Part shown: in pieces, positions 3,265 through 15,782 of the stretch
How the letters are laid out: every line of letters begins with the position of its first letter
Position numbering within the stretch: position 1 is the stretch's first letter
DNA from: an uncultured Prevotellaceae bacterium
Lineage (GTDB): Bacteria; Bacteroidota; Bacteroidia; Bacteroidales; Bacteroidaceae
Direction of reading: 5' to 3'
DNA length: 64,000 bases
Assembly: GCA_947167515.1 (NCBI GenBank)
Contig: CAMVIM010000009.1
Span: 8,522-72,521 of the forward strand
Translations under genes and position numbers: made by a program
The notes under the pieces: model-generated
The model's input: the letters and a program-made list of their open reading frames with translations, nothing else
The model's database searches: none
What the model was told of the DNA's origin: nothing

Positions 3265-4437
3265 TCACTGCCGAACCAGTACTTGCGTCATGCAGTGGGC
3301 ACAGCCGTTGCCTTCGGTCAGTTCGTCCAGTTTGATGTATTCGACCTTGACTTGGTTGCGCTCCATTTTCGTTCTGAAGTCATCCGACACGTTGTCTGTA
3401 GCCATGATGTGACGCGGGGCGATGCACAGATAGTTGCTGCCAAAGTGCAGCTCGTCTTCATCGCTGAGCGGAATGATCTGTATGCCTCTGCCTTGCAAGA
3501 ACTTGACAAGGCTCCCATTGGTGGTGATTTGTTTGTATTTCAGCCTTCCTGGTGCGCGGGCGTAAATGTCGATAGCAACATAGTTGGCCTCACCTGCTTG
3601 TGCGTTCATGCGGGCAGAGGGCAGGGTGACGAGATGGCTGTCGATGATGTTGAAATAGGTGTCGAGGTGCATCTGTGAAGTGTTGTGGAGCACATCCTTC
3701 ACTACGACGATAGTGTCGTGTCCGATAGCATCTGCCTGTAGCAATTCCTCGATGGCTGCACGGTTGGTGCGCAGACCTTCTCCGATGAATGAGAGTGTGC
3801 CGAAGGGAAGGTAGTCACCGCCTTCCAGATAGGCATTGTTCCCTTCAATCGTATAGGCAATCTTCTCCCCTAACTGTTCATAGCACAGGGCTATCAATGC
3901 CGGCTCATGTTTTCGGTGGACGAGTCGCATCTTGCCCATGACGTGTCCTCGGGGCGTGGTGATGCTTTGGTCTCGTGTGAAGTAGAGTCCTTTCATTGGG
4001 GGCGTATCGAGTATATGGCGAATCAACAGTTCTTTGTCCATCTGACTGATATCTTCCGAGGAAATGGACTGTGCTATTGTTTGCAGGCGGCTCATGGGCG
4101 CATTCCTCAACAAGTCAATCACCTCATGCACCTCTATCCCATTCTTCTGTAGGGCATGGATGAATGCAAGGTGCTCCTCTTTCATCCCTTCCACATCGAA
4201 CTGCTTATGCAACCCGTATGACCCTTGGTTTTCATTACCGGGAGTGTGCATGAGAATGGTTGTTGCGTACATGTACTCAGCCAAATGAGTGTATGTGGCA
4301 TCTGCTGCGACAAAATCCGCCTCATCCTGCTCGTTGTCAGTGCTGCATCCTGCCAAAAGGATGCAGTAAACAAAACACCATGCCCACCAACGGAGGGACA
4401 TGGGTTTCCTTTTATGGCTGGGCGTATGAATCTTCAT
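3265..4437 (-). CDS. Arginine deiminase-family (guanidino-modifying) enzyme with a lipoprotein signal
   Basis: ADI-type motifs occur in order: YFTRDQ, LEGGDY, MHLDTYFN, and a C-terminal GCAHCMTQ with the catalytic Cys. The N-terminus MSLRWWAWCFVYCILLAGC is a lipobox (alternative start at 4401). Confidence 0.7.
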   Translation of the reverse strand: MKIHTPSHKRKPMSLRWWAWCFVYCILLAGCSTDNEQDEADFVAADATYTHLAEYMYATTILMHTPGNENQGSYGLHKQFDVEGMKEEHLAFIHALQKNGIEVHEVIDLLRNAPMSRLQTIAQSISSEDISQMDKELLIRHILDTPPMKGLYFTRDQSITTPRGHVMGKMRLVHRKHEPALIALCYEQLGEKIAYTIEGNNAYLEGGDYLPFGTLSFIGEGLRTNRAAIEELLQADAIGHDTIVVVKDVLHNTSQMHLDTYFNIIDSHLVTLPSARMNAQAGEANYVAIDIYARAPGRLKYKQITTNGSLVKFLQGRGIQIIPLSDEDELHFGSNYLCIAPRHIMATDNVSDDFRTKMERNQVKVEYIKLDELTEGNGCAHCMTQVLVRQ

Positions 4438-7886: not shown

Positions 7887-8175
7887 AAATCATCAACTGG
7901 TTTATGCCAGACCCATGACAGTTTGTGGGTCATACATTCGTGCAAACAACTGCAGAAAGAACAGCGTGTCTTTCGATGGACGTGCAATCTTACTCGTCAT
8001 GTTCAGAATCGTCGATGTAGCTTTGTGTGCTGGAGTAGAATCATTCATAGGCAATCTGCTTTTTGCTATTACGTTTTCTCTTTCTATATTACTAATAACG
8101 AACTCGAAATCCATTTATTATAACACACGCAACTTTTATTTTCCTATTTTCTTTGTTTTTATTCGTGTTTTCTTT

Positions 8176-8183
8176 TATCTTTG
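8176..8183 (+). promoter_or_regulatory. -7 promoter box (TAtcTTTG)
   Basis: tatctttg lies about 37 nt upstream of the ATG at 8220. Confidence 0.45.
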
Positions 8184-8219
8184 CAAAACCTAAAACGATT
8201 CACCAACCTTTAACTCAAT

Positions 8220-8666
8220 ATGAATATGGAAAATATAACCTTTCAACTGTCCGATGTGCCAGGCAATTTCACCCTGTGCCTCAATGCCGACTGCCCCTTG
8301 GCGGAGCGGTGTCTGCACCAGATGGTGAGGAGAATGATTCCGACGGACGAACTGGTGCTGCACGTGTATAACCCTGAAGCCGTGAAGGGCGGAGAGAACT
8401 GTAAGTTTTTCCGAGCGCTGAAACTGGATCGTTATGCCAAGGGATTCTCTCGTTTCCAAGAAGAGATGGTGCCGAGGCAATATGCGGTGTTTAGCAGGTC
8501 GCTGATGCACTACTTCGGCCGAAATCCTTACTATGAACGGCGGCGCGGGGAGAGGTCGCTCTCACCAGCCGAGCAGGAAGTGGTGCTCCAAGCGTTGCGC
8601 AAGGCTGGCATAGAAGAAGACCTTGAGTTTGACGGCTATGAATACCGCATCAATTGGATTGATTGA
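8220..8666 (+). CDS. Conserved hypothetical protein (Cys-containing N-terminus)
   Basis: 148 aa with good coding appearance, its own promoter and a downstream hairpin. No family assigned with confidence. Confidence 0.55.
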   Translation: MNMENITFQLSDVPGNFTLCLNADCPLAERCLHQMVRRMIPTDELVLHVYNPEAVKGGENCKFFRALKLDRYAKGFSRFQEEMVPRQYAVFSRSLMHYFGRNPYYERRRGERSLSPAEQEVVLQALRKAGIEEDLEFDGYEYRINWID

Positions 8667-8784
8667 CGGGTGTTTCCATCTGTATTTGTTTGTCAATATT
8701 TAAGTACTTGTTAATCAGTACTTCGGTGCTTGTTTGTCAGTACCGTTGTACTCATTCGTCAATACTCCAGAACTCGTTTGCCAA

Positions 8785-8860
8785 TACTCCAGTACTCCTT
8801 CGTCAGTACTCTAATACTGCTGCGGCAGTACTTCAGTACTGACGAAGGAGTACTGGAGTA
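8785..8860. repeat. 26-bp perfect inverted repeat (hairpin) built from AGTACT-containing units, probably a bidirectional terminator
   Basis: 8785-8810 tactccagtactccttcgtcagtact is the exact reverse complement of 8835-8860. The 24-nt loop contains a further tactgc/gcagta stem. Degenerate direct copies of the unit ttcgtcaatact / tttgccaatact run from about 8690. Confidence 0.75.
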
Positions 8861-8929
8861 CTTTTGAAGGCATACAAAAGTGAGTACAGGCGTCGGAAAA
8901 AGGAGGATATGCGTGAGGGATGTAGGTTG

Positions 8930-9761
8930 TTACGGCTTCTTCATGCGATGCTTCCTGAGTGTCGGCACTTCCTCGCAGAGGGCATCGGCCAGCAGACGAG
9001 CCACGACGGTGGCGCCATAGACGTTGTAGTGGGTGTTGTCCTGCCGCCCTTCGGGGAGGCTTGGCTCTTCACCGGGACGGAACCACATGTGGAGCCGTTT
9101 GGAGCCTTCGCGCCCCAAGCCCTGCTCCAACTGGTGTGTGATGCGGTTGGCATCGACGAAGGGGACGTGCATCCGTTCGGCCACCTGTCGGGGAGCCACC
9201 CCGGTAGAGGCCGTGGGTGTCGATGAGGCTGTCCCCTTCCACCATCTTCACGCCGTCCTTGAAGGTCGTCTCGCGGAGCAACTCGTCATCGTCATTTTCG
9301 GGTGCCTTGACGAAGAAGTTGCGGCGCACCACGCTGTTCATCAGGATGGGGATGCCGCCCCGCTGGCGTGTCTCGCGCACGAACCGCTCCAGGTTGGCAT
9401 CGAACGTGCTGCCCGGTTCCGTGTGGCGGTCGGGCTTGGGCTTCTCGTCGTTGTGGCCGAACTGAATCACCACATAGTCGCTGGGCTGCATCAGTTCCAG
9501 CACCCGTGCCCATCGGCCCTCGTTGATGAAAGAGAGCGATGAACGTCCGTTCACTGCGTGATTATCTACTCGGATGCCGTCGTCGAAACACGCTTGGAGC
9601 ATCATGCCCCAACCCCGTTCTTGCTTGCCGTTTGTGGTGTCTTTGTTGGCCATCGTCGAGTCGCCAATCAGAAAGATGGTCACCGCTCGGCGTGGTGTGA
9701 AGGCCGTGAGGAGGCACCACGCGGCGATGCACAACATCAGCATGTTCGTTGTCCGTTTCAT
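8930..9761 (-). pseudogene. SGNH/GDSL hydrolase (rhamnogalacturonan acetylesterase-like), split by a frameshift near 9197-9203
   Basis: ORF 9069-9761 carries block I (GDSTMA), block II (NHAVNGRS) and block III (GHND). The block V DxxH motif (DNTHY) lies in ORF 8930-9199 in another frame. The frames switch at the run accccgg (9197-9203). Confidence 0.75.
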
Positions 9762-9823
9762 TTTAGTGGAAGTGCTTTCTGTGAAAAAATCGTGTCATTC
9801 GTGGTTAAGAAAAACTGGAGATT

Positions 9824-10165
9824 TCAGGGGTTCAGTTTGGGGTTGCTCCTGTGCCGCTCCTTGTCTCGGAGTGTCTTCTTTTCGAGGTTCTTCCGAAAGG
9901 CATCCGTGAGGTCCACTCCTGTCTGGTTGGCCAGGCAGAGGAGCACCCAAAGCACGTCGGCCATCTCGTCGGCTGGGTCTTGCGGTTCGCCGGGCTTGAA
10001 AGACTGCTCGCCGTATTTCCGTGACATGATGCGGGCCAGTTCGCCCACCTCTTCGGTCAGGATGGCCATGTTGGTCAGTTCGGAGAAGTAGCGCACCCCA
10101 TAGGTGCGAATCCACTCATCCACTTGTTCTTGTGCCTGTTGCAGGGTCAGTGTCGTTTTATCCAT
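9824..10165 (-). CDS. MazG-like nucleotide pyrophosphohydrolase
   Basis: 113 aa with the EExGE motif (LTEEVGELA) and a downstream acidic helix (ADEMADVLW), typical of the small MazG/YpjD family. Confidence 0.8.
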   Translation of the reverse strand: MDKTTLTLQQAQEQVDEWIRTYGVRYFSELTNMAILTEEVGELARIMSRKYGEQSFKPGEPQDPADEMADVLWVLLCLANQTGVDLTDAFRKNLEKKTLRDKERHRSNPKLNP

Positions 10166-10277
10166 GTGTGTCAGTTCTTTTTGTCTTCGTGTGGCAAAGA
10201 TAGCGATTCCTGAGCGGAAAAAGGGAAAAGCACGAGTTTTTTGTGGTGGAGTGGCGAGAAAAGTGCTGGATTTTGAT

Positions 10278-10285
10278 TATCTTTG
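10278..10285 (+). promoter_or_regulatory. -7 promoter box (TAtcTTTG), presumably the ancestral luxS promoter
   Basis: tatctttg lies about 43 nt upstream of the ATG of the luxS fragment (ATG at 10328). Confidence 0.5.
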
Positions 10286-10325
10286 CAACCGATAAGTATT
10301 CATTATTCATATATCTATACCACTT

Positions 10326-10401
10326 CTATGGAAGTCATACAAAGTTTCACGATGATTATACCTGCTTGAAACCAGGCATCTATGTGTCGCACATAGATAG
10401 G
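10326..10401 (+). pseudogene. Duplicated 5' fragment of luxS (about the first 25 codons, frameshifted)
   Basis: 10326-10401 aligns with 11831-11908 (the start of intact luxS) with 3 substitutions and 1 single-base indel over ~77 nt. Confidence 0.85.
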
Positions 10402-10742
10402 AGCCTCCCAGTCAAACTATTAATAATAGAAGTTGCGCTCGATACGAATCAGGACATAAGAAAATGAAGAAAAAATGATTGCTATTTGGTAGCCGTAATG
10501 AGCATCTGTGCCATCACTTTCATCTTCGTGAATACGGCACGGGCAACAGAGAACACTATGGGGGGAGGAACATGGCGACGGTCACTGCCGCAAGTGTGGA
10601 ACAAAGAATGGACATTATCGCTGTAGGGCTTTTTGTCCGATTAAAGGTCAGCCTACGGATTGTACTTGTGGACACAGCAAGAACTAGCATGCTTGCACAA
10701 ACTAAAATCATCCCAACTAGACTTGCCTGCAAAACAGAAGAA

Positions 10743-10799
10743 AGAGCGGGAACCTATGCCGACATCCTCGGCCTCGGTGTCCGCTCTTTTTCTGTCTTT
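10743..10799 (+). terminator. Terminator-like hairpin plus T-rich tail inside the non-coding part of the insertion
   Basis: agagcgg (10743-10749) pairs with ccgctct (10781-10787), followed by tttttctgtcttt. Confidence 0.4.
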
Positions 10800-10845
10800 A
10801 TCAAAGAATTTCCTAACAAGAGGCTGTTGTCTGAGAAAAGTTTTG

Positions 10846-10853
10846 TAAATTTG
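10846..10853 (+). promoter_or_regulatory. -7 promoter box (TAaaTTTG) for the three-gene cassette
   Basis: taaatttg lies about 24 nt upstream of the ATG at 10877. Confidence 0.45.
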
Positions 10854-10876
10854 CAACCGTTAAAAGCGATTGAAGT

Positions 10877-11092
10877 ATGAGAACGGAGCATTTGGATTTC
10901 ATCACCTTCTGTGTTGGCAGCCTGTCGGACGCGCTTCATAAGAGTGCATCGCAAGTGTATGGTGCCCTGCGCTCGTCGGGAGTGCTGAACGACTATATTG
11001 TGCCATGTTACGACGTGCTGCACACGTTCAGCAAGGACTATCTCGTGGAGGAACTGACGGAGGTGCTAAAGGAAAGGGGGGCTCTGGCATGA
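10877..11092 (+). CDS. Small DUF3791-like protein (copy 1)
   Basis: 71 aa. It shares a C-terminal pattern [LM]H-x2-S-x-[DE]-Y-L-x-[DE]-E-L with the 72-aa ORF at 11566. Its stop overlaps the next start (ATGA at 11089-11092). Confidence 0.6.
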   Translation: MRTEHLDFITFCVGSLSDALHKSASQVYGALRSSGVLNDYIVPCYDVLHTFSKDYLVEELTEVLKERGALA

Positions 11093-11562
11093 GACTATAT
11101 CACGCATCGACATTGGTCATCGAAAAGCCTGACGTGCTTCATTCGCGCGACAAACTTGACTTCGGTAGAGGATTCTATCTGACCGCTATTCCTGAACAGG
11201 CGGTGCGCTATGCCGAACGTTTTACTCGCAGGGGCAAAGAGGCTTTTATTAACGAGTACGAACTTGACGAGGAAACACCAGACTTTAACATCAAGTCTTT
11301 CCCAAGTTACGACGAGGAATGGCTTGACTATGTGGCAGTTTGCAGGAAGGGAGGGGAACCGCAGTCGTCTTATGATGCCGTGTCTGGTGGTGTGGCCAAC
11401 GACAAGGTGTTCAATACCGTTGACCTGTATTTTGCTGGTGTCATTTCCAAGGATGAGGCGTTGGGGCGTTTGAAATACGAGAAGCCCAATCATCAGTTGT
11501 GTATTCTCAACGGTCAGATGCTTGACCGCCATCTTCATTTCATCAAGGCTGAAAGGGTTTAG
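11089..11562 (+). CDS. DUF3990-like protein (possible ADP-ribosyltransferase-fold toxin)
   Basis: I prefer the internal start MRLYHAS at 11089. Motifs seen: YHAS, FGRGFYLT and a late NHQLCIL. From memory, the size (157 aa) and FGxGFY motif match the DUF3990 family. Confidence 0.65.
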   Translation: MRLYHASTLVIEKPDVLHSRDKLDFGRGFYLTAIPEQAVRYAERFTRRGKEAFINEYELDEETPDFNIKSFPSYDEEWLDYVAVCRKGGEPQSSYDAVSGGVANDKVFNTVDLYFAGVISKDEALGRLKYEKPNHQLCILNGQMLDRHLHFIKAERV

Positions 11563-11565
11563 ACG

Positions 11566-11784
11566 ATGGAAGCGAACAAGACGATACTTCAAATGAAATA
11601 TGCAAGGATTGTGGCAATCTTTGCGCAGGAGTCTGGGCTCTCGCTGGAAGATGCCCTTTCGTTCTTCTATGATTCCGACACGTATCAACTCATCAGTGAA
11701 GGGGTTGCAGACATGCACTGCCGCAGTGACGAGTATCTGGCAGACGAACTGATGCTGGAGTACAACGAAAAGGATGCCAGATAA
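11566..11784 (+). CDS. Small DUF3791-like protein (copy 2)
   Basis: 72 aa. It starts 3 nt after the previous stop and is paralogous to the 10877 ORF (MHCRSDEYLADEL vs LHTFSKDYLVEEL). Confidence 0.6.
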   Translation: MEANKTILQMKYARIVAIFAQESGLSLEDALSFFYDSDTYQLISEGVADMHCRSDEYLADELMLEYNEKDAR

Positions 11785-11832
11785 GTCCCTTTTTCACATC
11801 CCACAAATCTTAACTATATTACAATTATACCT

Positions 11833-12327
11833 ATGGAAGTCATACAAAGTTTCACGATTGATCATACCTGCCTGAAACCAGGCATCTATGTGTCGCGCAT
11901 AGATAGGGGCTTCACCACGTTCGACCTGCGCATCACCGAACCCAACAAGGAGCCGGCTGTGGCTCCTGCTGCCATGCACAGTCTGGAGCATCTCATGGCC
12001 ACATGGTTTCGCAACAGCGAGGCGAAGGACGATGTGGTGTATGTGGGGCCGATGGGGTGTCTCACGGGCATGTATGTCATCATGACAGGTGCATACACCG
12101 TGGAGGACATGCGTCGTCTCACCATCGAGTGTCTGGAGTGGATTCTCACGCAGACGGCTGTGCCAGCCACGGAACCTGCGACTTGCGGCAACTATCTGCT
12201 CCATGACTTGCCCATGTGCAAGTGGGAGAGCCGCCGCTATCTCGACCGCTTACAGCACGATTTCCACAGCGAGTACACTCAGTTGCGTGTCACTCTCGAA
12301 GACGGCAAGACATTTGCCGACGCATAG
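11833..12327 (+). CDS. luxS: S-ribosylhomocysteine lyase
   Basis: 164 aa with the metal-binding HSLEH motif and GCLTG, and the typical N-terminus SFTIDHT.L.PG.Y. Confidence 0.95.
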   Translation: MEVIQSFTIDHTCLKPGIYVSRIDRGFTTFDLRITEPNKEPAVAPAAMHSLEHLMATWFRNSEAKDDVVYVGPMGCLTGMYVIMTGAYTVEDMRRLTIECLEWILTQTAVPATEPATCGNYLLHDLPMCKWESRRYLDRLQHDFHSEYTQLRVTLEDGKTFADA

Positions 12328-12354
12328 GGCATCCATCCCAAATAGAGTTGAAAC

Positions 12355-13740
12355 ATGATTGATTCGAGCATATTGCAAGGCAAGAAAGCGGCGTACTTCA
12401 CGCTGGGCTGCAAACTGAACTTCGCGGAAACAAGCACCGTGGCGCAGCAGTTGGCGCGTTATGGGGTGACGAAGGCGCAGAAAGGTGAGGTGGCTGACAT
12501 CGTGGTGGTGAACACGTGCAGCGTGACCGAGGTGGCTGACCACAAATGTCGGCAGGCGATTCATCGGTTGGTGAAGCAACACCCTGGGGCTTTCGTCGTC
12601 GTCACTGGCTGCTATGCGCAGTTGAAGCCACAGGAAATCGTGGAAACGGAAGGGGTGGACCTCGTGCTGGGGAGTGAGCAGAAGGGGAACATCATACCGA
12701 TGATTATGGAGACCCTCTCCCTAACCCTCCCCCGTAATGGGGAGGGAACCCATCCGGTGAGTTCCTCAACGGCAAAGAACCCGAAAGGCCTCCCTCCCCA
12801 TTATGGGGGAGGGTCGGGAAGAGGGTCTTTTTCCCCTGCTTGTTCCCGTGGCGACCGCACTCGCTATTTCCTGAAGGTGCAGGACGGCTGCAACTACTAC
12901 TGCACCTATTGCACCATCCCGATTGCCCGTGGACGAAGCCGCAACGGGAGCATTGCCTCGCTGGTGGAGCAAGCCGAAGAGGTGGCCCGCGAGGGGGGCA
13001 AGGAGATTGTCATCACGGGTGTGAACATCGGTGACTTCGGACGCTCCACGGGAGAGACCTTCTTCGACCTCGTGAAGGCACTCGATGGGGTGGAGGGCAT
13101 TGAACGCTACCGCATCTCGAGCATCGAGCCGAACCTGCTGACCGATGAAATCATCGAGTACTGTGTGCAGTCGAGGGCTTTCATGCCGCATTTCCACATC
13201 CCCTTGCAGAGTGGTTGCGATGAGGTGTTGAGGCTTATGCACCGCAAGTACGACACAGCCCTTTTCGCCCATAAGATAGAGAAGATACGCTCCGTGATGC
13301 CCGATGCTTTCATCGGTGTGGATGTCATCGTAGGCACTCGTGGCGAGACACAGGAGTATTTTGAGAAAGCCTATGACTTCATGCAGCGTGTCGATGTATC
13401 CCAGTATCACGTCTTCTCCTACTCCGAACGGGCTGGCACCAAAGCCTTGGAAATCCCTCATGTGGTCACGCCGCAGGAAAAGCACCAGCGCAGTCAGCGT
13501 GTCCTCGCTCTTTCGGCGCAGAAGACTCACGACTTCTACAGCCGGTTCATCGGCACCACGCGGTCTGTGCTGCTCGAACATGCCTCGCCTCGCAAGCCTC
13601 TGATGAACGGCTTTACCGACAACTACATCCGTGTGGAAGTGCCCAACCAACCTCACCTCGACAACCAGATTGTGCCAGTGCGATTGGATGGATTTAACGA
13701 AGCAGGGGATGCCTTGTGTGGGGAAATGATTAACAAATGA
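12355..13740 (+). CDS. mtaB: tRNA t6A37 methylthiotransferase (radical SAM MTTase)
   Basis: N-terminal MTTase domain (TLGCKLNFAETS, VVNTCSVT), radical-SAM CNYYCTYC and a C-terminal TRAM-like end. An extra palindromic element lies in the inter-domain linker. Confidence 0.9.
   Translation: MIDSSILQGKKAAYFTLGCKLNFAETSTVAQQLARYGVTKAQKGEVADIVVVNTCSVTEVADHKCRQAIHRLVKQHPGAFVVVTGCYAQLKPQEIVETEGVDLVLGSEQKGNIIPMIMETLSLTLPRNGEGTHPVSSSTAKNPKGLPPHYGGGSGRGSFSPACSRGDRTRYFLKVQDGCNYYCTYCTIPIARGRSRNGSIASLVEQAEEVAREGGKEIVITGVNIGDFGRSTGETFFDLVKALDGVEGIERYRISSIEPNLLTDEIIEYCVQSRAFMPHFHIPLQSGCDEVLRLMHRKYDTALFAHKIEKIRSVMPDAFIGVDVIVGTRGETQEYFEKAYDFMQRVDVSQYHVFSYSERAGTKALEIPHVVTPQEKHQRSQRVLALSAQKTHDFYSRFIGTTRSVLLEHASPRKPLMNGFTDNYIRVEVPNQPHLDNQIVPVRLDGFNEAGDALCGEMINK
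12710..12828. repeat. 119-bp palindromic (MITE/REP-like) element translated in-frame within mtaB
   Basis: The 38-nt arms 12710-12747 and 12791-12828 are reverse complements at 34/38 positions. Each arm also holds its own ccctcccc/ggggaggg hairpin. The element encodes ETLSLTLPRNGEGTHPVSSSTAKNPKGLPPHYGGGSGRGS. Confidence 0.8.
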
Positions 13741-13980
13741 TAGAAACAACTCAATAAAGAGAATTGTTATATGGAAAAAAATGCAAAAATAGGAATGATG
13801 CGTAGTCGAATAGAATTCTTCTATAATGAGTATCGTTTGAAAGCGATGGAGTCTTTGTCTTATGGAAGATACTATAGATATATGCTTTTATGGCAGGATT
13901 GATGGATGTGGATGAAAAAGAAATTGATGCTTATTGGAATATCGATTAGTAAAAGATTATTGTGAATTCGATAAATCTTA

Positions 13981-14080
13981 CGAATAATTCTGGGAAATCC
14001 GCTAAATTCGTTTCATCATCGCGAAGCGGTATGTTTTATATAACAAGTTCCTTTGGAACGATTGGACGGATTGAGCGGAT
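13981..14080 (+). repeat. Direct repeat, copy 1 (~90-100 bp), flanking the GxxExxY pseudogene
   Basis: cgaataat..atccg..tcatcgcgaagcggtatgtttt..caagttcctttggaacgatt..ggattgagcggat recurs at 14510-14598. It contains the hairpin gttcc-tttg-gaac. Confidence 0.75.
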
Positions 14081-14125
14081 TTTTTTGAGATAAAAGTAAT
14101 TGAAATAGATGAAAAATAGCAGATT

Positions 14126-14508
14126 ATGTTGATTCACGAGAACGAAACGTATCAGATTATTGGTGCGGCAATGGAAGTACACAAGACATTAGGGTGTGGG
14201 TTTACGGAGAAAGTGTACCAAGAGCATTAGAGAAGGAATTCCTTCGGCAAAGCATCCCTTTCGTACGTGAATCTTCCATGTAAGTTGTTTATAAAGAGGA
14301 AGTTTTATCTTCGACGTTTGTGCCAGATTTTGTGTGCTATAATAAGATAATAGTGGAATTGAAGGCAGTGGAAGAGTTGTCGGGCTTGCATGAGTCACAG
14401 GTGATTAATTATGCACATGTGGCAGACATGAAAGTGGCTTTGCTGATAAACTTTGGGACGGAGGCATTAGAATATAAGCGTTTGTTTAATCCAAATGGTG
14501 TCAAATAA
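14126..14508 (+). pseudogene. GxxExxY-family (PD-(D/E)xK-like) gene, decayed by a frameshift and stops
   Basis: My translation from ATG at 14126 gives [34 protein letters not shown] then a stop. The rest of the family pattern (..DFVCYNKIIVELKAV..SQVINY..LLINFG..) continues in another frame, in ORF 14320-14508. Confidence 0.7.
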
Positions 14509-14509
14509 T

Positions 14510-14598
14510 CCGAATAATCTGCTCAATCCGTTCAATCATCGCGAAGTGGTATGTTTTCTAGACAAGTTCCTTTGGAACGATTAAAGGGATTGAGCGGA
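14510..14598 (+). repeat. Direct repeat, copy 2
   Basis: See copy 1. The central ~65 bp are about 90% identical by eye. Confidence 0.75.
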
Positions 14599-14680
14599 TG
14601 TTCCTCATAGCTTCCCTGGTTGAAGAGAGAATAATAAAAGGATAAAATGGTCGTAAATACAAAAAAATGAACAAGAATCT

Positions 14681-15772
14681 ATGAAACAGTTATTATTAGT
14701 CATCTTCTGTCTGCTGAGTTTTCAGGTTCAGGCTCAGAATCAGCAGGAGCAGCTTCAGCACATCCGCAAGATGTATGCCGATGCCAAGGAACAGATAGCC
14801 CAGAATGGGAAGAACGGCATGGCTCCCCTGGATGTGAAAGTCAGCATCAGCGACGGGACGCAAGTGGACGAGGACTTTTTCCTTGACGATGAGACGGAAC
14901 TCACCTTCTATTTCAACAAATATCGTGTCAATGCAGAATTGGACTATCCCGATGCTTCCAGTTGCTATTTTGTCGTGGAGAACTGGACATCGCATGGACA
15001 CCTCCGCTATCGTGAGATACTCTTTGACCCCAATGAGGGCAATCTGCTCTTCTGCTACATGCGGCAGGAGACGGATGCGGGCTTTGTGGTAGAGACCCGC
15101 TACTATTATGATGCTGACGGAAAACTCATCGACCAAAAGCATAAGGTGGGAGGTGCGGATGCTGAGCCTGGTGCTCACGATTGGAACAATGGCGAGAGTG
15201 AAAAGGCGCAGGCCATGCTGTATCTGAATGCCTTCGAGACTCTGATGAATGCCAAAGGGGGCACATCAGCGCAGAACCGAGTGAAAAAGCCCACTACCCC
15301 CAAGGCTGATAGACTGGCATTCATCCGCAGCATCTATGCCCAAGCCAAGCAGAAGGTTGCTGACAATGCCAAGTCGGAGGTGCCTCATGACATGCAGATT
15401 GTGGTTCGTGACCAGTCATGGGGACCACCATCAATCACGGAACTGCATTTCTACTTTGAACCCGTGGCAGGTCAAGCAGGGGCTGATGGCAACAGTTGCT
15501 ATTTCATCTCCAGACATTTTCATCATAACAACATGGGGCCCGACCACTATAACGAATACCTGTTAGCCCCTCAGAGCCAAGACCTCCTCTTCTCCTACAC
15601 CTCTGCCAAAGAAGAGGGTGAGAAGTTCGAGTGGCGGTACTACTACGACGAGAACGGAAAGTGCATCGAGGTGAAGACCGATGCTGACGGTGGAGATGAC
15701 GGAGTCGGCGACAAGGCTGCCGTCCAGCGGTATCTCAAGTTGTTCAACATGCTGGTCAACCCCTCTGATTGA
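14681..15772 (+). CDS. Secreted hypothetical protein with an internal two-fold duplication
   Basis: Signal peptide MKQLLLVIFCLLSFQVQAQ. The two halves share IRKMYADAKEQIAQNGK / IRSIYAQAKQKVADNAK and RYYYDADGKLI / RYYYDENGKCI. Confidence 0.65.
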   Translation: MKQLLLVIFCLLSFQVQAQNQQEQLQHIRKMYADAKEQIAQNGKNGMAPLDVKVSISDGTQVDEDFFLDDETELTFYFNKYRVNAELDYPDASSCYFVVENWTSHGHLRYREILFDPNEGNLLFCYMRQETDAGFVVETRYYYDADGKLIDQKHKVGGADAEPGAHDWNNGESEKAQAMLYLNAFETLMNAKGGTSAQNRVKKPTTPKADRLAFIRSIYAQAKQKVADNAKSEVPHDMQIVVRDQSWGPPSITELHFYFEPVAGQAGADGNSCYFISRHFHHNNMGPDHYNEYLLAPQSQDLLFSYTSAKEEGEKFEWRYYYDENGKCIEVKTDADGGDDGVGDKAAVQRYLKLFNMLVNPSD

Positions 15773-15782
15773 AAGGAAAAAG

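Follow-up and report, generated by a model that had tools for sequence, protein, structure and literature searches.

Some prophages and islands insert themselves within a gene and replace its lost end with a copy of their own, as phage 21 and e14 do in icd. Incoming DNA can also be joined to a genome by homology-facilitated illegitimate recombination (HFIR), or by circularisation and a single crossover, as described in Acinetobacter, Pseudomonas stutzeri, Streptococcus pneumoniae and E. coli (PMC3240628), and HFIR-type capture has been invoked for T6SS effector-immunity arrays (PMC5361080). A separate body of work concerns PDC-M13 (DUF3791-DUF3990-DUF3791), a candidate system predicted by ‘guilt by embedding’ (bioRxiv 10.1101/2024.01.29.577857) and reported to be abundant in rumen genomes, with 3324 loci (PMC13356809). 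Its DUF3990 component is assigned to the ADP-ribosyltransferase clan in Pfam (PMC7955679).

In the window analysed here, 64,000 nucleotides from an uncultured Prevotellaceae bacterium, a three-gene cassette of this type lies between two copies of the luxS 5' end, just as an earlier note on this DNA had described (Table 1). That note took the locus for a resident luxS cut off from its own promoter. We favour, with some reserve, the reading that a composite, lineage-specific insertion entered the mtaB leader and left the 82-bp repeat as its scar, and that the repeat does not mark an interrupted old luxS locus. A composite insertion that leaves a gene-end remnant is a known recombination outcome and is ordinary in kind.

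Table 1. Features of the mazG-mtaB region, in window positions
Feature	Position	Strand	Basis
mazG (nucleotide pyrophosphohydrolase), native left flank	9824..10165	-	Pfam MazG, E = 3e-14
Native mazG-mtaB intergenic DNA	10166..10289		collinear with relatives' intergenic region
Predicted mazG promoter box	10195-10202	-	consensus scan
Predicted ancestral mtaB promoter box TATCTTTG	10278-10285	+	consensus scan
36-nt leader, old mtaB box to luxS fragment	10290..10325	+	no significant similarity to empty site
Left repeat, decayed luxS 5' fragment (luxS -2 to +80)	10326..10407	+	alignment, blastn
Frameshifted small ORF, likely pseudogene; signal-peptide-like N-terminus, then Cys/His-rich tail	10466..10686	+	at least 2 frame changes in three-frame translation
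Terminator-like hairpin with U-rich tail, between old mtaB and cassette promoters	10734..10795	+	fold, inverted repeat I2
Conserved cassette unit including its own TAAATTTG box	10758..11773	+	shared with PDC-M13-type cassettes in other contexts
Cassette gene A, DUF3791, 71 aa	10877..11092	+	Pfam PF12668, E = 5e-21; PADLOC PDC-M13A, E = 7.3e-26
Cassette gene B, DUF3990, 157 aa, putative ADP-ribosyltransferase-clan/RES-like toxin	11089..11562	+	PF13151, E = 3e-48; PDC-M13B, E = 1.6e-56
Cassette gene C, divergent DUF3791-like, 72 aa	11566..11784	+	PADLOC PDC-M13C, E = 8.6e-35
46-nt spacer, cassette gene C to luxS repeat; no promoter box or stable hairpin	11785..11830	+	fold z = +1.1
Right repeat, 5' end of intact luxS	11831..11913	+	repeat search, MAFFT, blastn
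Intact luxS (S-ribosylhomocysteine lyase, 164 aa)	11833..12327	+	Pfam LuxS, E = 9e-46
27-nt luxS-mtaB spacer	12328..12354	+	no significant similarity to relatives' mtaB leaders
mtaB (tRNA ms2t6A methylthiotransferase), native right flank	12355..13740	+	TIGR01579, 375.2 bits, cut-off 357

The two copies of the repeat agree at 77 of 83 alignment columns (repeat search, MAFFT and blastn; blastn E = 6e-29) and differ at the other six, through five substitutions and the loss of 1 nt from the upstream copy; the positions are 10353/54 (the deletion), 10357, 10366, 10391, 10402 and 10405. The three substitutions and one deletion counted earlier over 10326-10401 are exact within those limits, and the true end of the repeat lies 6 nt further, at 10407. 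Its onset is 2 nt 5' of the luxS ATG. Four of the five substitutions (H11Y, R22H, G26S and F27L) fall at positions that are invariant, or so in all but one, among 79 other luxS genes. Because these changes strike (near-)invariant residues and the deletion shifts the frame, residue conservation shows the left copy to be the decaying one; it retains a 13-codon ORF (10328-10369) and is, as the note had it, a dead luxS fragment. The same structure and the same six differences recur in independently assembled contigs from 14 samples (L081-L096), several of which span both repeats and which come from different assemblers. Because the differences are identical throughout, the repeat is neither a product of chance nor an assembly artefact.

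The state of this site before the insertion is preserved in relatives. In four related lineages (P0004, P0006, P0002 and P0019, the four closest by MazG, represented by loci L097-L102, L204 and L205) mazG and mtaB are direct divergent neighbours, 136-160 bp apart, with neither luxS nor a cassette between them. The MazG homologues that adjoin mtaB in these relatives are 90-92% identical, and the wider gene order of Mfd, DUF6078, GT2 and thioredoxins is kept as well. The native intergenic segment of the window, including the box at 10278, is collinear with the intergenic region of L097, L100, L204 and L205 (local score 43, reached by 0 of 3000 shuffles), and this collinear homology stops at TTTGCAAC. 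In the relatives the mtaB ATG stands 16-39 nt downstream of the last base of the promoter box, beside mazG. These comparisons show the ancestral state to be a divergent mazG-mtaB pair with a predicted TAnnTTTG promoter ahead of mtaB. The box TAtcTTTG is present where the earlier note had placed it; however, because the DNA from 10166 to 10289 aligns collinearly with the mazG-mtaB intergenic region, it is the predicted ancestral mtaB promoter, orthologous to that of luxS-free relatives, and not a luxS promoter. The uninterrupted mazG-luxS allele that the note had expected to find by aligning related strains is replaced in the four closest MazG lineages by adjacent mazG and mtaB, without any luxS.

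The identity of luxS itself is clear: the protein matches NCBIfam NF002604 at full length and equivalog level (179.5 bits against a cut-off of 158), carries the HSLEH (metal-binding HxxEH) and CGN motifs, and is 86-98% identical to 80 Prevotella LuxS sequences. MtaB, whose TIGR01579 match is likewise at equivalog level, also matches Pfam UPF0004 and Radical_SAM. What is unusual is their proximity, as luxS lies near mazG or mtaB in none of the luxS loci of 79 other Prevotella species, and no luxS stands upstream of the genes for MtaB relatives (0 of 80 loci). Because the relatives' mazG-mtaB site lacks both luxS and cassette, and because none of the 79 other luxS loci adjoins either gene, the roughly 2.06 kb between promoter and mtaB (10290-12354) is, on comparative grounds, lineage-specific DNA. 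In other words, luxS is by the same comparison a newcomer between mazG and mtaB, and the picture of a native luxS locus severed from its own promoter gives way to one in which mtaB, now 2.07 kb from its ancestral promoter, is equally displaced. The whole insertion is present in the window's species, and the sister species UBA4301 has at least the right-hand junction between cassette and luxS, on a 2.8-kb contig that ends inside cassette gene C.

A changed context is not exceptional for this gene. luxS often shifts context in rumen Prevotella, where about half of the species have an mtnN-luxS arrangement (38 of 80) and the rest have luxS under its own promoter or in another context; this bears on attempts to infer AI-2 regulation from gene neighbourhood. 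Similarity among luxS loci of different contexts begins at the ATG. The 36-nt and 46-nt leaders, compared with the luxS upstream regions of 77 species, matched at chance level after multiple testing. A resemblance of the luxS 3' end to the promoter region of the empty site (TCTCGAAGA...) was marginal (p ~0.05), the luxS 3' end being typical of its family, and was rejected. An Rfam scan of 9800-12500 returned only a sub-threshold snoRNA match, which we take as chance.

Between the luxS fragment and the first cassette gene lie 475 bp, the length given in the earlier note, which had called this DNA non-coding; it is not featureless, as it holds a frameshifted small ORF and a strong hairpin. The small ORF has no homologue by word-based protein search, and the called 133-aa ORF has no Pfam match. 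Its weak tblastn matches (in L015, in L054 and at 49.5 kb in the window) were set aside because they lie within unrelated genes (ThiD-like, another frame). The hairpin has a folding energy of -33.7 kcal/mol (z = -5.2), and none of 200 shuffles was as stable; a simple terminator scan missed it, its stem-loop falling outside the limits of that scan.

The cassette resembles PDC-M13 in that three adjacent same-strand genes match the PADLOC A, B and C models in order, with the same sizes and the same tight coupling (A and B overlap by 4 nt and B and C are 3 nt apart). The match of gene C to Pfam DUF3791 is below threshold (E = 0.002), and that of gene B to DUF3990 covers profile positions 1-152 of 152 at 163.9 bits (cut-off 32.2). 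The box at 10846-10853 stands 23 nt upstream of gene A and is conserved in relatives, with which the unit shares 88% identity (L121-L123, from 10758), 85% (L105-L112, from 10832) or 78% (L113-L120, from 10835). Together the profile matches and conserved box show a PDC-M13-type unit with its own predicted promoter. Unlike the settings on which the PDC-M13 prediction was based, this cassette lies outside BREX, DISARM and R-M systems, upstream of two housekeeping genes. No defence system stands beside it, its neighbours over about 6 kb being Mfd, DUF6078, GDSL lipase, MazG, LuxS, MtaB, PDDEXK_3 and GT2, and the cassette proteins match nothing in PHROGs, NCBIfam or the PDB sequences.

The putative toxin of the cassette was compared with known structures. 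The AlphaFold2 model of the DUF3990 protein is of moderate confidence (pLDDT 64), and in a Foldseek search its best matches are the RES toxins 9r35 and 6gw6 (Pseudomonas putida; probability 0.99-1.0), followed by exotoxin A (ExoA), cholix toxin and tankyrase catalytic domains, which would place the predicted fold near Xre-RES and ART toxins. Residues that do not vary across 15 homologues include H5 and Y30. As in Xre-RES modules, the putative toxin gene overlaps or directly adjoins small partner genes, and a small partner coupled to a putative toxin gene behind its own promoter is also the arrangement expected of a type II toxin-antitoxin pair. Unlike Xre-RES, sequence identity to the matched toxins is about 9-10%, TM is only 0.47-0.50, and the partners are two DUF3791 proteins and not one Xre.

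Close relatives of the cassette occur in at least five other genomic contexts. One (L206) adjoins a methylase and a ResIII helicase, and those of L113 and L206 lie 10-190 nt upstream of same-strand genes. A 123-bp repeat from a neighbouring gene, which is split, flanks the cassette of L106 on both sides, and the cassette of L107 lies downstream of an integrase C-terminus. No flanking direct repeats were found around the related cassettes of L108, L113, L121/L122 and L206/L208, which make up four of the six sampled contexts.

We propose that the locus was assembled in three steps. First, luxS would have come to sit ahead of mtaB, downstream of the mtaB promoter. New DNA, from another luxS context, would then have arrived, carrying the small ORF and terminator, the cassette, the 46-nt spacer and a luxS start. 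Finally, this DNA may have been captured through luxS homology at its right end and joined illegitimately at luxS +80 at its left, either as a linear fragment, by homology-facilitated illegitimate recombination, or after ligation into a circle, by a single crossover. Capture through luxS homology would account for a repeat that begins 2 nt before the ATG, the point at which luxS genes of unrelated contexts become alike, and this starting point argues for homology-assisted capture of a fragment carrying cassette and luxS, and not for transposition. As in HFIR, a short homology, here at the luxS 5' end, would anchor the incoming DNA on one side, with an illegitimate join on the opposite side. 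What was left of the resident gene end would be displaced to a place beside the new module, and mobile-element enzymes would not be required; unlike the described cases, the event is here reconstructed from the final structure alone. An exact-pattern scan of metagenome contigs, which can detect only a near-identical allele, returned no intermediate with mtaB promoter, luxS and mtaB free of the cassette. Neither the 79 species representatives nor the six sampled cassette contexts include a donor in which a cassette immediately precedes luxS.

The lack of an intermediate would also fit a one-step import, in which the whole block of luxS fragment, small ORF, cassette and luxS stood ready-made in a donor and was inserted into the mtaB leader. 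We regard this as a lesser but real possibility, as the mfd-mtaB interval is variable, with different genes acquired there in almost all relatives, and the surroundings of luxS differ greatly across rumen Prevotella. However, under such an import the repeat would still have had to arise, in a different genome, and the block is not seen elsewhere: every contig with the cassette-luxS junction also has the flanks of this locus. We consider it improbable that luxS, with its own promoter, was native between mazG and mtaB and was split when one cassette insertion duplicated 82 bp and parted promoter from gene. The order of promoter box, luxS fragment, insert and luxS is as that history would have it, and the 42 nt from box to fragment ATG are promoter-like and resemble the spacing in L046. 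Yet four luxS-free lineages have the orthologue of the box, and of all DNA leftward of it, between their mazG and mtaB, the 36-nt leader has no significant similarity to other luxS leaders, and the surveys of 79 luxS loci and 80 MtaB-relative loci cited above offer no second case of such a neighbourhood.

A remnant of a site-specific integrative element strikes us as quite improbable. In that case an island targeting the luxS 5' end would have brought a surrogate luxS start, left att-like 82-bp repeats and later been mostly deleted. As with phage 21 and e14 in icd, there is a direct repeat of a gene end in which the copy on the element side keeps the gene intact and the other is a dead remnant, and the integrase C-terminus of L107 and the 123-bp repeat of L106 speak in the same direction. 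Unlike those prophages, this locus has no integrase, an insert of only 1.4 kb, a duplicated 5' and not 3' end, and no recurrence at luxS in other genomes. Direct repeats are present; however, the 1.42-kb insert and about 6 kb on either side contain no tyrosine or serine recombinase gene and no transposase. Neither terminal inverted repeats nor a short (2-14 bp) target duplication is present, and the earlier judgement that a transposase would not duplicate so long a target, here 82 bp, is upheld. The conserved unit of the cassette family ends well inside the insert, four of the six sampled cassette contexts lack flanking repeats, and no cassette relative is associated with luxS. The repeat could in principle have been made with no incoming luxS homology, by replication-based template switching or by a tandem duplication and a later deletion, and a tandem duplication in L040 that takes in the initial 20 nt of luxS indicates that local duplications of the luxS start do occur. 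We nonetheless hold this to be very improbable, as the DNA between the repeats is not copied from neighbouring DNA, the start of the repeat at the ATG is given no reason, and extra deletion steps are needed. An assembly artefact or chimeric contig may practically be dismissed: repeats can mislead assemblers, and the low-coverage contig L094 has a 32-bp deletion within the repeat, but the arrangement and its six differences are identical in the 14 samples.

Returning to the composite insertion, its most immediate consequence may be transcriptional. Promoters were assigned from a consensus scan only, in which the sole plus-strand TAnnTTTG boxes are those at 10278 and 10846, separated by the strong hairpin; from 10854 to 13740 there is none on the plus strand, and neither a box nor a stable structure precedes luxS or mtaB. 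Along A-B-C-luxS-mtaB the genes are spaced by -4, 3, 48 and 27 nt. The earlier observations that intact luxS has no TAnnTTTG box of its own and starts 48 nt after the last cassette gene are thus borne out, and its suggestion that luxS depends on the cassette promoter is plausible. Transcripts from the old mtaB promoter would meet the 13-codon remnant, the pseudogene and then the hairpin, and luxS and mtaB are probably the last two genes of a five-gene operon read from 10846. A match to TTCACA-16-TATATT at 11793-11820, upstream of luxS, leaves a non-canonical or alternative-sigma promoter within 11785-11832 possible.

For annotation, the box at 10278 is to be read as a stranded mtaB promoter and not as a luxS promoter. 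More broadly, the promoter of the cassette, a putative NAD-dependent toxin or defence module, probably drives both mtaB and luxS (with its roles in AI-2 and the activated methyl cycle) in this lineage of rumen Prevotellaceae, which would tie AI-2/methyl-cycle and tRNA ms2t6A functions to the expression of that module. If true, this is a concrete case of an accessory toxin-like module taking over the transcription of housekeeping genes.

A more far-reaching hypothesis, which we regard as a long shot, is that PDC-M13-type cassettes are self-promoting ‘promoter-swap’ units. Such units would spread by homology-assisted capture beside gene starts, bringing an upstream terminator and their own promoter, so that the housekeeping genes behind them, in this case luxS and mtaB, come to rely on them for transcription; this dependence would stabilise the toxin-like module against loss. 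Four of the six sampled contexts are without a flanking repeat, and the 123-bp repeat of L106 and the positions of L113 and L206 upstream of same-strand genes are compatible with the idea.

The two promoters also share a 14-nt repeat, TTTGCAACCG[A/T]TAA, at 10282 and 10850, which we considered as a recombination footprint and rejected. The form TTTGCAACC..TAA also occurs in the mtaB promoter of L205 and in the cassette promoters of relatives, and the repeat most likely reflects a general promoter architecture.

The luxS 5' duplication described in the earlier note was recovered by alignment and blastn (E = 6e-29): positions 10326-10407 repeat 11831-11913 with 77 identities over 83 columns, five substitutions and one T absent from the upstream copy. 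The same arrangement, with the identical six differences, occurs in same-species contigs from 14 samples built by several assemblers (L081-L096), which excludes the assembly error that the note had allowed for and indicates that the repeat-bearing structure is fixed in the species. One of these contigs (L094, 2x coverage) has a 32-bp deletion within the luxS 5' repeat (window 11848-11879) that would frameshift luxS; the deletion could be genuine or could reflect a slip of the assembler in the repeat.

Genes of the locus, with window positions
Gene product	Position	Strand	Evidence
MazG-type pyrophosphohydrolase	9824-10165	-	domain search
DUF3791; PADLOC PDC-M13A	10877-11092	+	E = 7e-26 (PDC-M13A)
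DUF3990; PDC-M13B	11089-11562	+	E = 2e-56 (PDC-M13B)
Divergent DUF3791-like; PDC-M13C	11566-11784	+	E = 9e-35 (PDC-M13C)
LuxS	11833-12327	+	equivalog-level match
MtaB	12355-13740	+	equivalog-level match

By its sequence, the left repeat is a decaying copy. It encodes just MEVIQSFTMIIPA*, and four of its five substitutions (H11Y, R22H, G26S and F27L) alter residues that are invariant, or invariant but for one, among 79 other LuxS sequences, in agreement with its original description as dead. The distance from this fragment to the first cassette gene is 475 bp, as first given. The 350 bp after the left repeat hold a small ORF whose start resembles a signal peptide and whose tail is rich in Cys and His; it is readable only via at least two frameshifts and has no homologue detectable in protein-level or translated searches. 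It is followed by a hairpin (-33.7 kcal/mol, z = -5.2) with a U-rich tail.

The uninterrupted mazG-luxS interval that the earlier note sought in relatives has a different counterpart. In the four lineages with the closest MazG (90-92% identical; P0004, P0006, P0002 and P0019, loci L097-L102, L204 and L205), mazG and mtaB are direct divergent neighbours 136-160 bp apart, and both luxS and the cassette are absent from the mazG-mtaB loci. The wider gene order of Mfd, DUF6078, then mtaB, GT2 and thioredoxins is common to these lineages and the window. Of 80 metagenome loci that encode MtaB relatives, not one had luxS upstream. Window positions 10166-10289 are collinear with the empty-site intergenic DNA (a score reached by 0 of 3000 shuffles), running from the mazG start through the mazG box to GATTTTGA.TA..TTTGCAAC, where similarity ends. 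Because of this collinear homology, the box at 10278, where TATCTTTG is indeed present, is on sequence grounds the orthologue of the mtaB promoter of luxS-free relatives, and not the luxS promoter for which it had been taken. In those relatives 16-39 nt separate the last base of the box from the mtaB ATG. The window carries about 2.06 kb of lineage-specific DNA (10290-12354), within which the 36-, 46- and 27-nt spacers match neither the empty-site loci nor other luxS upstream regions.

The host is a rumen Prevotellaceae bacterium whose nearest species representative is UBA4301 (contig L001; LuxS 98% identical). The genomic context of luxS across 79 other Prevotella species (L002-L080; LuxS 86-91% identical) is very variable, and in none of them does mazG or mtaB lie within 6 kb of luxS. 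In 38 of 80 loci mtnN immediately precedes luxS, in 20 of 77 an own TAnnTTTG box lies within 90 nt of luxS, and the other loci have unrelated upstream DNA. These loci are alike from ATG to stop codon only. A separate case occurs in the rumen Prevotella MAG RGIG8264 (L040:4789-6021), where a 378-aa esterase gene is tandemly duplicated directly upstream of luxS. Its 81-nt repeat (91% identical) takes in the first 20 nt of luxS, and the second esterase copy begins with the luxS-derived ATG region. Here the luxS start was duplicated independently and by another route.

In the window, the repeat ends after luxS nucleotide 80/81 and starts 2 nt ahead of the ATG, the point from which luxS genes of unrelated context are alike; this suggests the joining of two luxS genes that differed in their upstream DNA. 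We hypothesize that a resident copy stood behind the mtaB promoter and an incoming copy behind the cassette, that the right-hand join would have formed by homologous recombination within luxS, and that the left-hand join would have been illegitimate, at resident luxS +80. The route could have been homology-facilitated illegitimate recombination of a linear fragment, or the fragment could first have been ligated into a circle and then integrated by a single crossover; both are documented (PMC3240628), and the first route has also been proposed for comparable module insertions that leave remnants (PMC5361080). The insertion here behaves like such homology-assisted capture, and the repeat probably arose in this way. 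A serious rival is that the block was imported ready-made and whole, since we found neither a donor nor an intermediate allele, the latter sought by exact-pattern scan of metagenome contigs. An integrase-borne island does not fit, there being no integrase inside the insert or in its flanks out to about 6 kb. A transposon does not fit either: the same interval holds no transposase, terminal inverted repeats are missing from the insert, and the 82-bp repeat is, as originally argued, far beyond transposase target duplications.

The event is old: the fragment has diverged by 6% and the cassette-luxS junction is common to UBA4301 and the window, which differ by 3% in luxS nucleotides and by about 6% in MtaB protein. 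The UBA4301 contig (L001:1-235) is 100% identical to window 11663-11897, a match that spans the final 173 nt of the cassette region and the initial 65 nt of luxS. Past 11897 the two are 3-7% divergent, with three differences within 13 nt (11898-11910); this edge may mark a recombination breakpoint or a recent between-species cassette exchange.

The cassette belongs by sequence to PDC-M13, one of 145 candidate systems predicted by "guilt by embedding" (bioRxiv 10.1101/2024.01.29.577857) and reported to be among the commonest predicted systems of rumen genomes (PMC13356809), although here it does not lie within a defence system. DUF3990 falls in the Pfam ADP-ribosyltransferase clan (PMC7955679). 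Its AlphaFold model (pLDDT 64, moderate confidence) best matches RES toxins of Xre-RES toxin-antitoxin pairs, its closest fold likeness (probability 0.99-1.0, TM 0.47-0.50), followed by the catalytic domains of exotoxin A, cholix toxin and tankyrase. Clan and model matches together suggest that the cassette is most likely a putative toxin-plus-partners module acting on NAD. Cassettes of this type elsewhere are 78-88% identical in nucleotides from 10758 (or 10832) to about 11772, a unit that takes in its own promoter box, TAAATTTG at 10846. They occupy at least five other genomic contexts, including beside HlyIII and peptidase M15, beside an integrase remnant, 5' of a gene for an 824-aa protein, and 5' of one for a CCA-adding enzyme. 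Flanking repeats of neighbouring gene pieces occur in two of six sampled contexts (the window and L106, 123 bp), a number too small to support a general mechanism. In L106 (also L105), a cassette with 90% identical DUF3990 lies between direct repeats (984-1106 and 3592-3714; 96.7% identical), the two copies of which represent the 3' and 5' parts, with overlap, of a HATPase_c_4/HTH gene that has been split. Compared with L107, which has an integrase C-terminus upstream, the segment shows a circular permutation, and the arrangement suggests a circular or greater-than-unit-length intermediate. Downstream of another related cassette, paired G+C-rich 40-47-nt repeats (GCCCCCC...CCCCCGAGGGGGC), about 670 nt apart, sit within a called CCA-adding enzyme gene (L206:5153-5918); a shorter allele (L208) lacks them, and they may be a small repeat-element insertion.

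A consensus scan of 10100-13740 found only two + strand promoter boxes, at 10278 and 10846, with the hairpin between them. TAnnTTTG is absent from this strand from 10854 to the end of mtaB, which bears out the earlier note that intact luxS has no obvious box of its own. Gaps of -4, 3, 48 and 27 nt separate the five genes of 10877-13740, the 48 nt before luxS being as reported. No stable structure was folded in the luxS-proximal spacer, a terminator scan of the locus found no terminator-like site on the + strand, and an E. coli-type promoter match lies at 11793-11820. This match may be active, and promoters of other kinds may exist outside the scanned consensus. From the two boxes, the intervening hairpin, the tight spacing and the lack of a terminator-like site, we infer, on consensus scans only, that luxS and mtaB would both be expressed from the cassette promoter, which widens to mtaB the dependence first proposed for luxS. 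The old mtaB promoter would now give a short dead-end transcript. The rearrangement is well documented but ordinary; its modest interest is that a toxin-like accessory cassette appears to have come to drive the transcription of two housekeeping functions.

The mfd-mtaB interval (window 7887-12354) behaves as a plasticity zone, different in almost every relative. Its contents include a PrsW protease with MazG; DUF6078, an R-M system and MazG (L205); a 375-aa ORF; or nothing (about 400 bp, L135). A second variable spot follows mtaB at 13741-15782, where G+C is low at the start (0.32-0.45) and a PDDEXK_3 gene and a 363-aa ORF are found. UBA4301 has about 630 bp in its place. Of the empty-site relatives, some (P0006 type) have the PDDEXK_3 gene and others (P0004 type) lack it.
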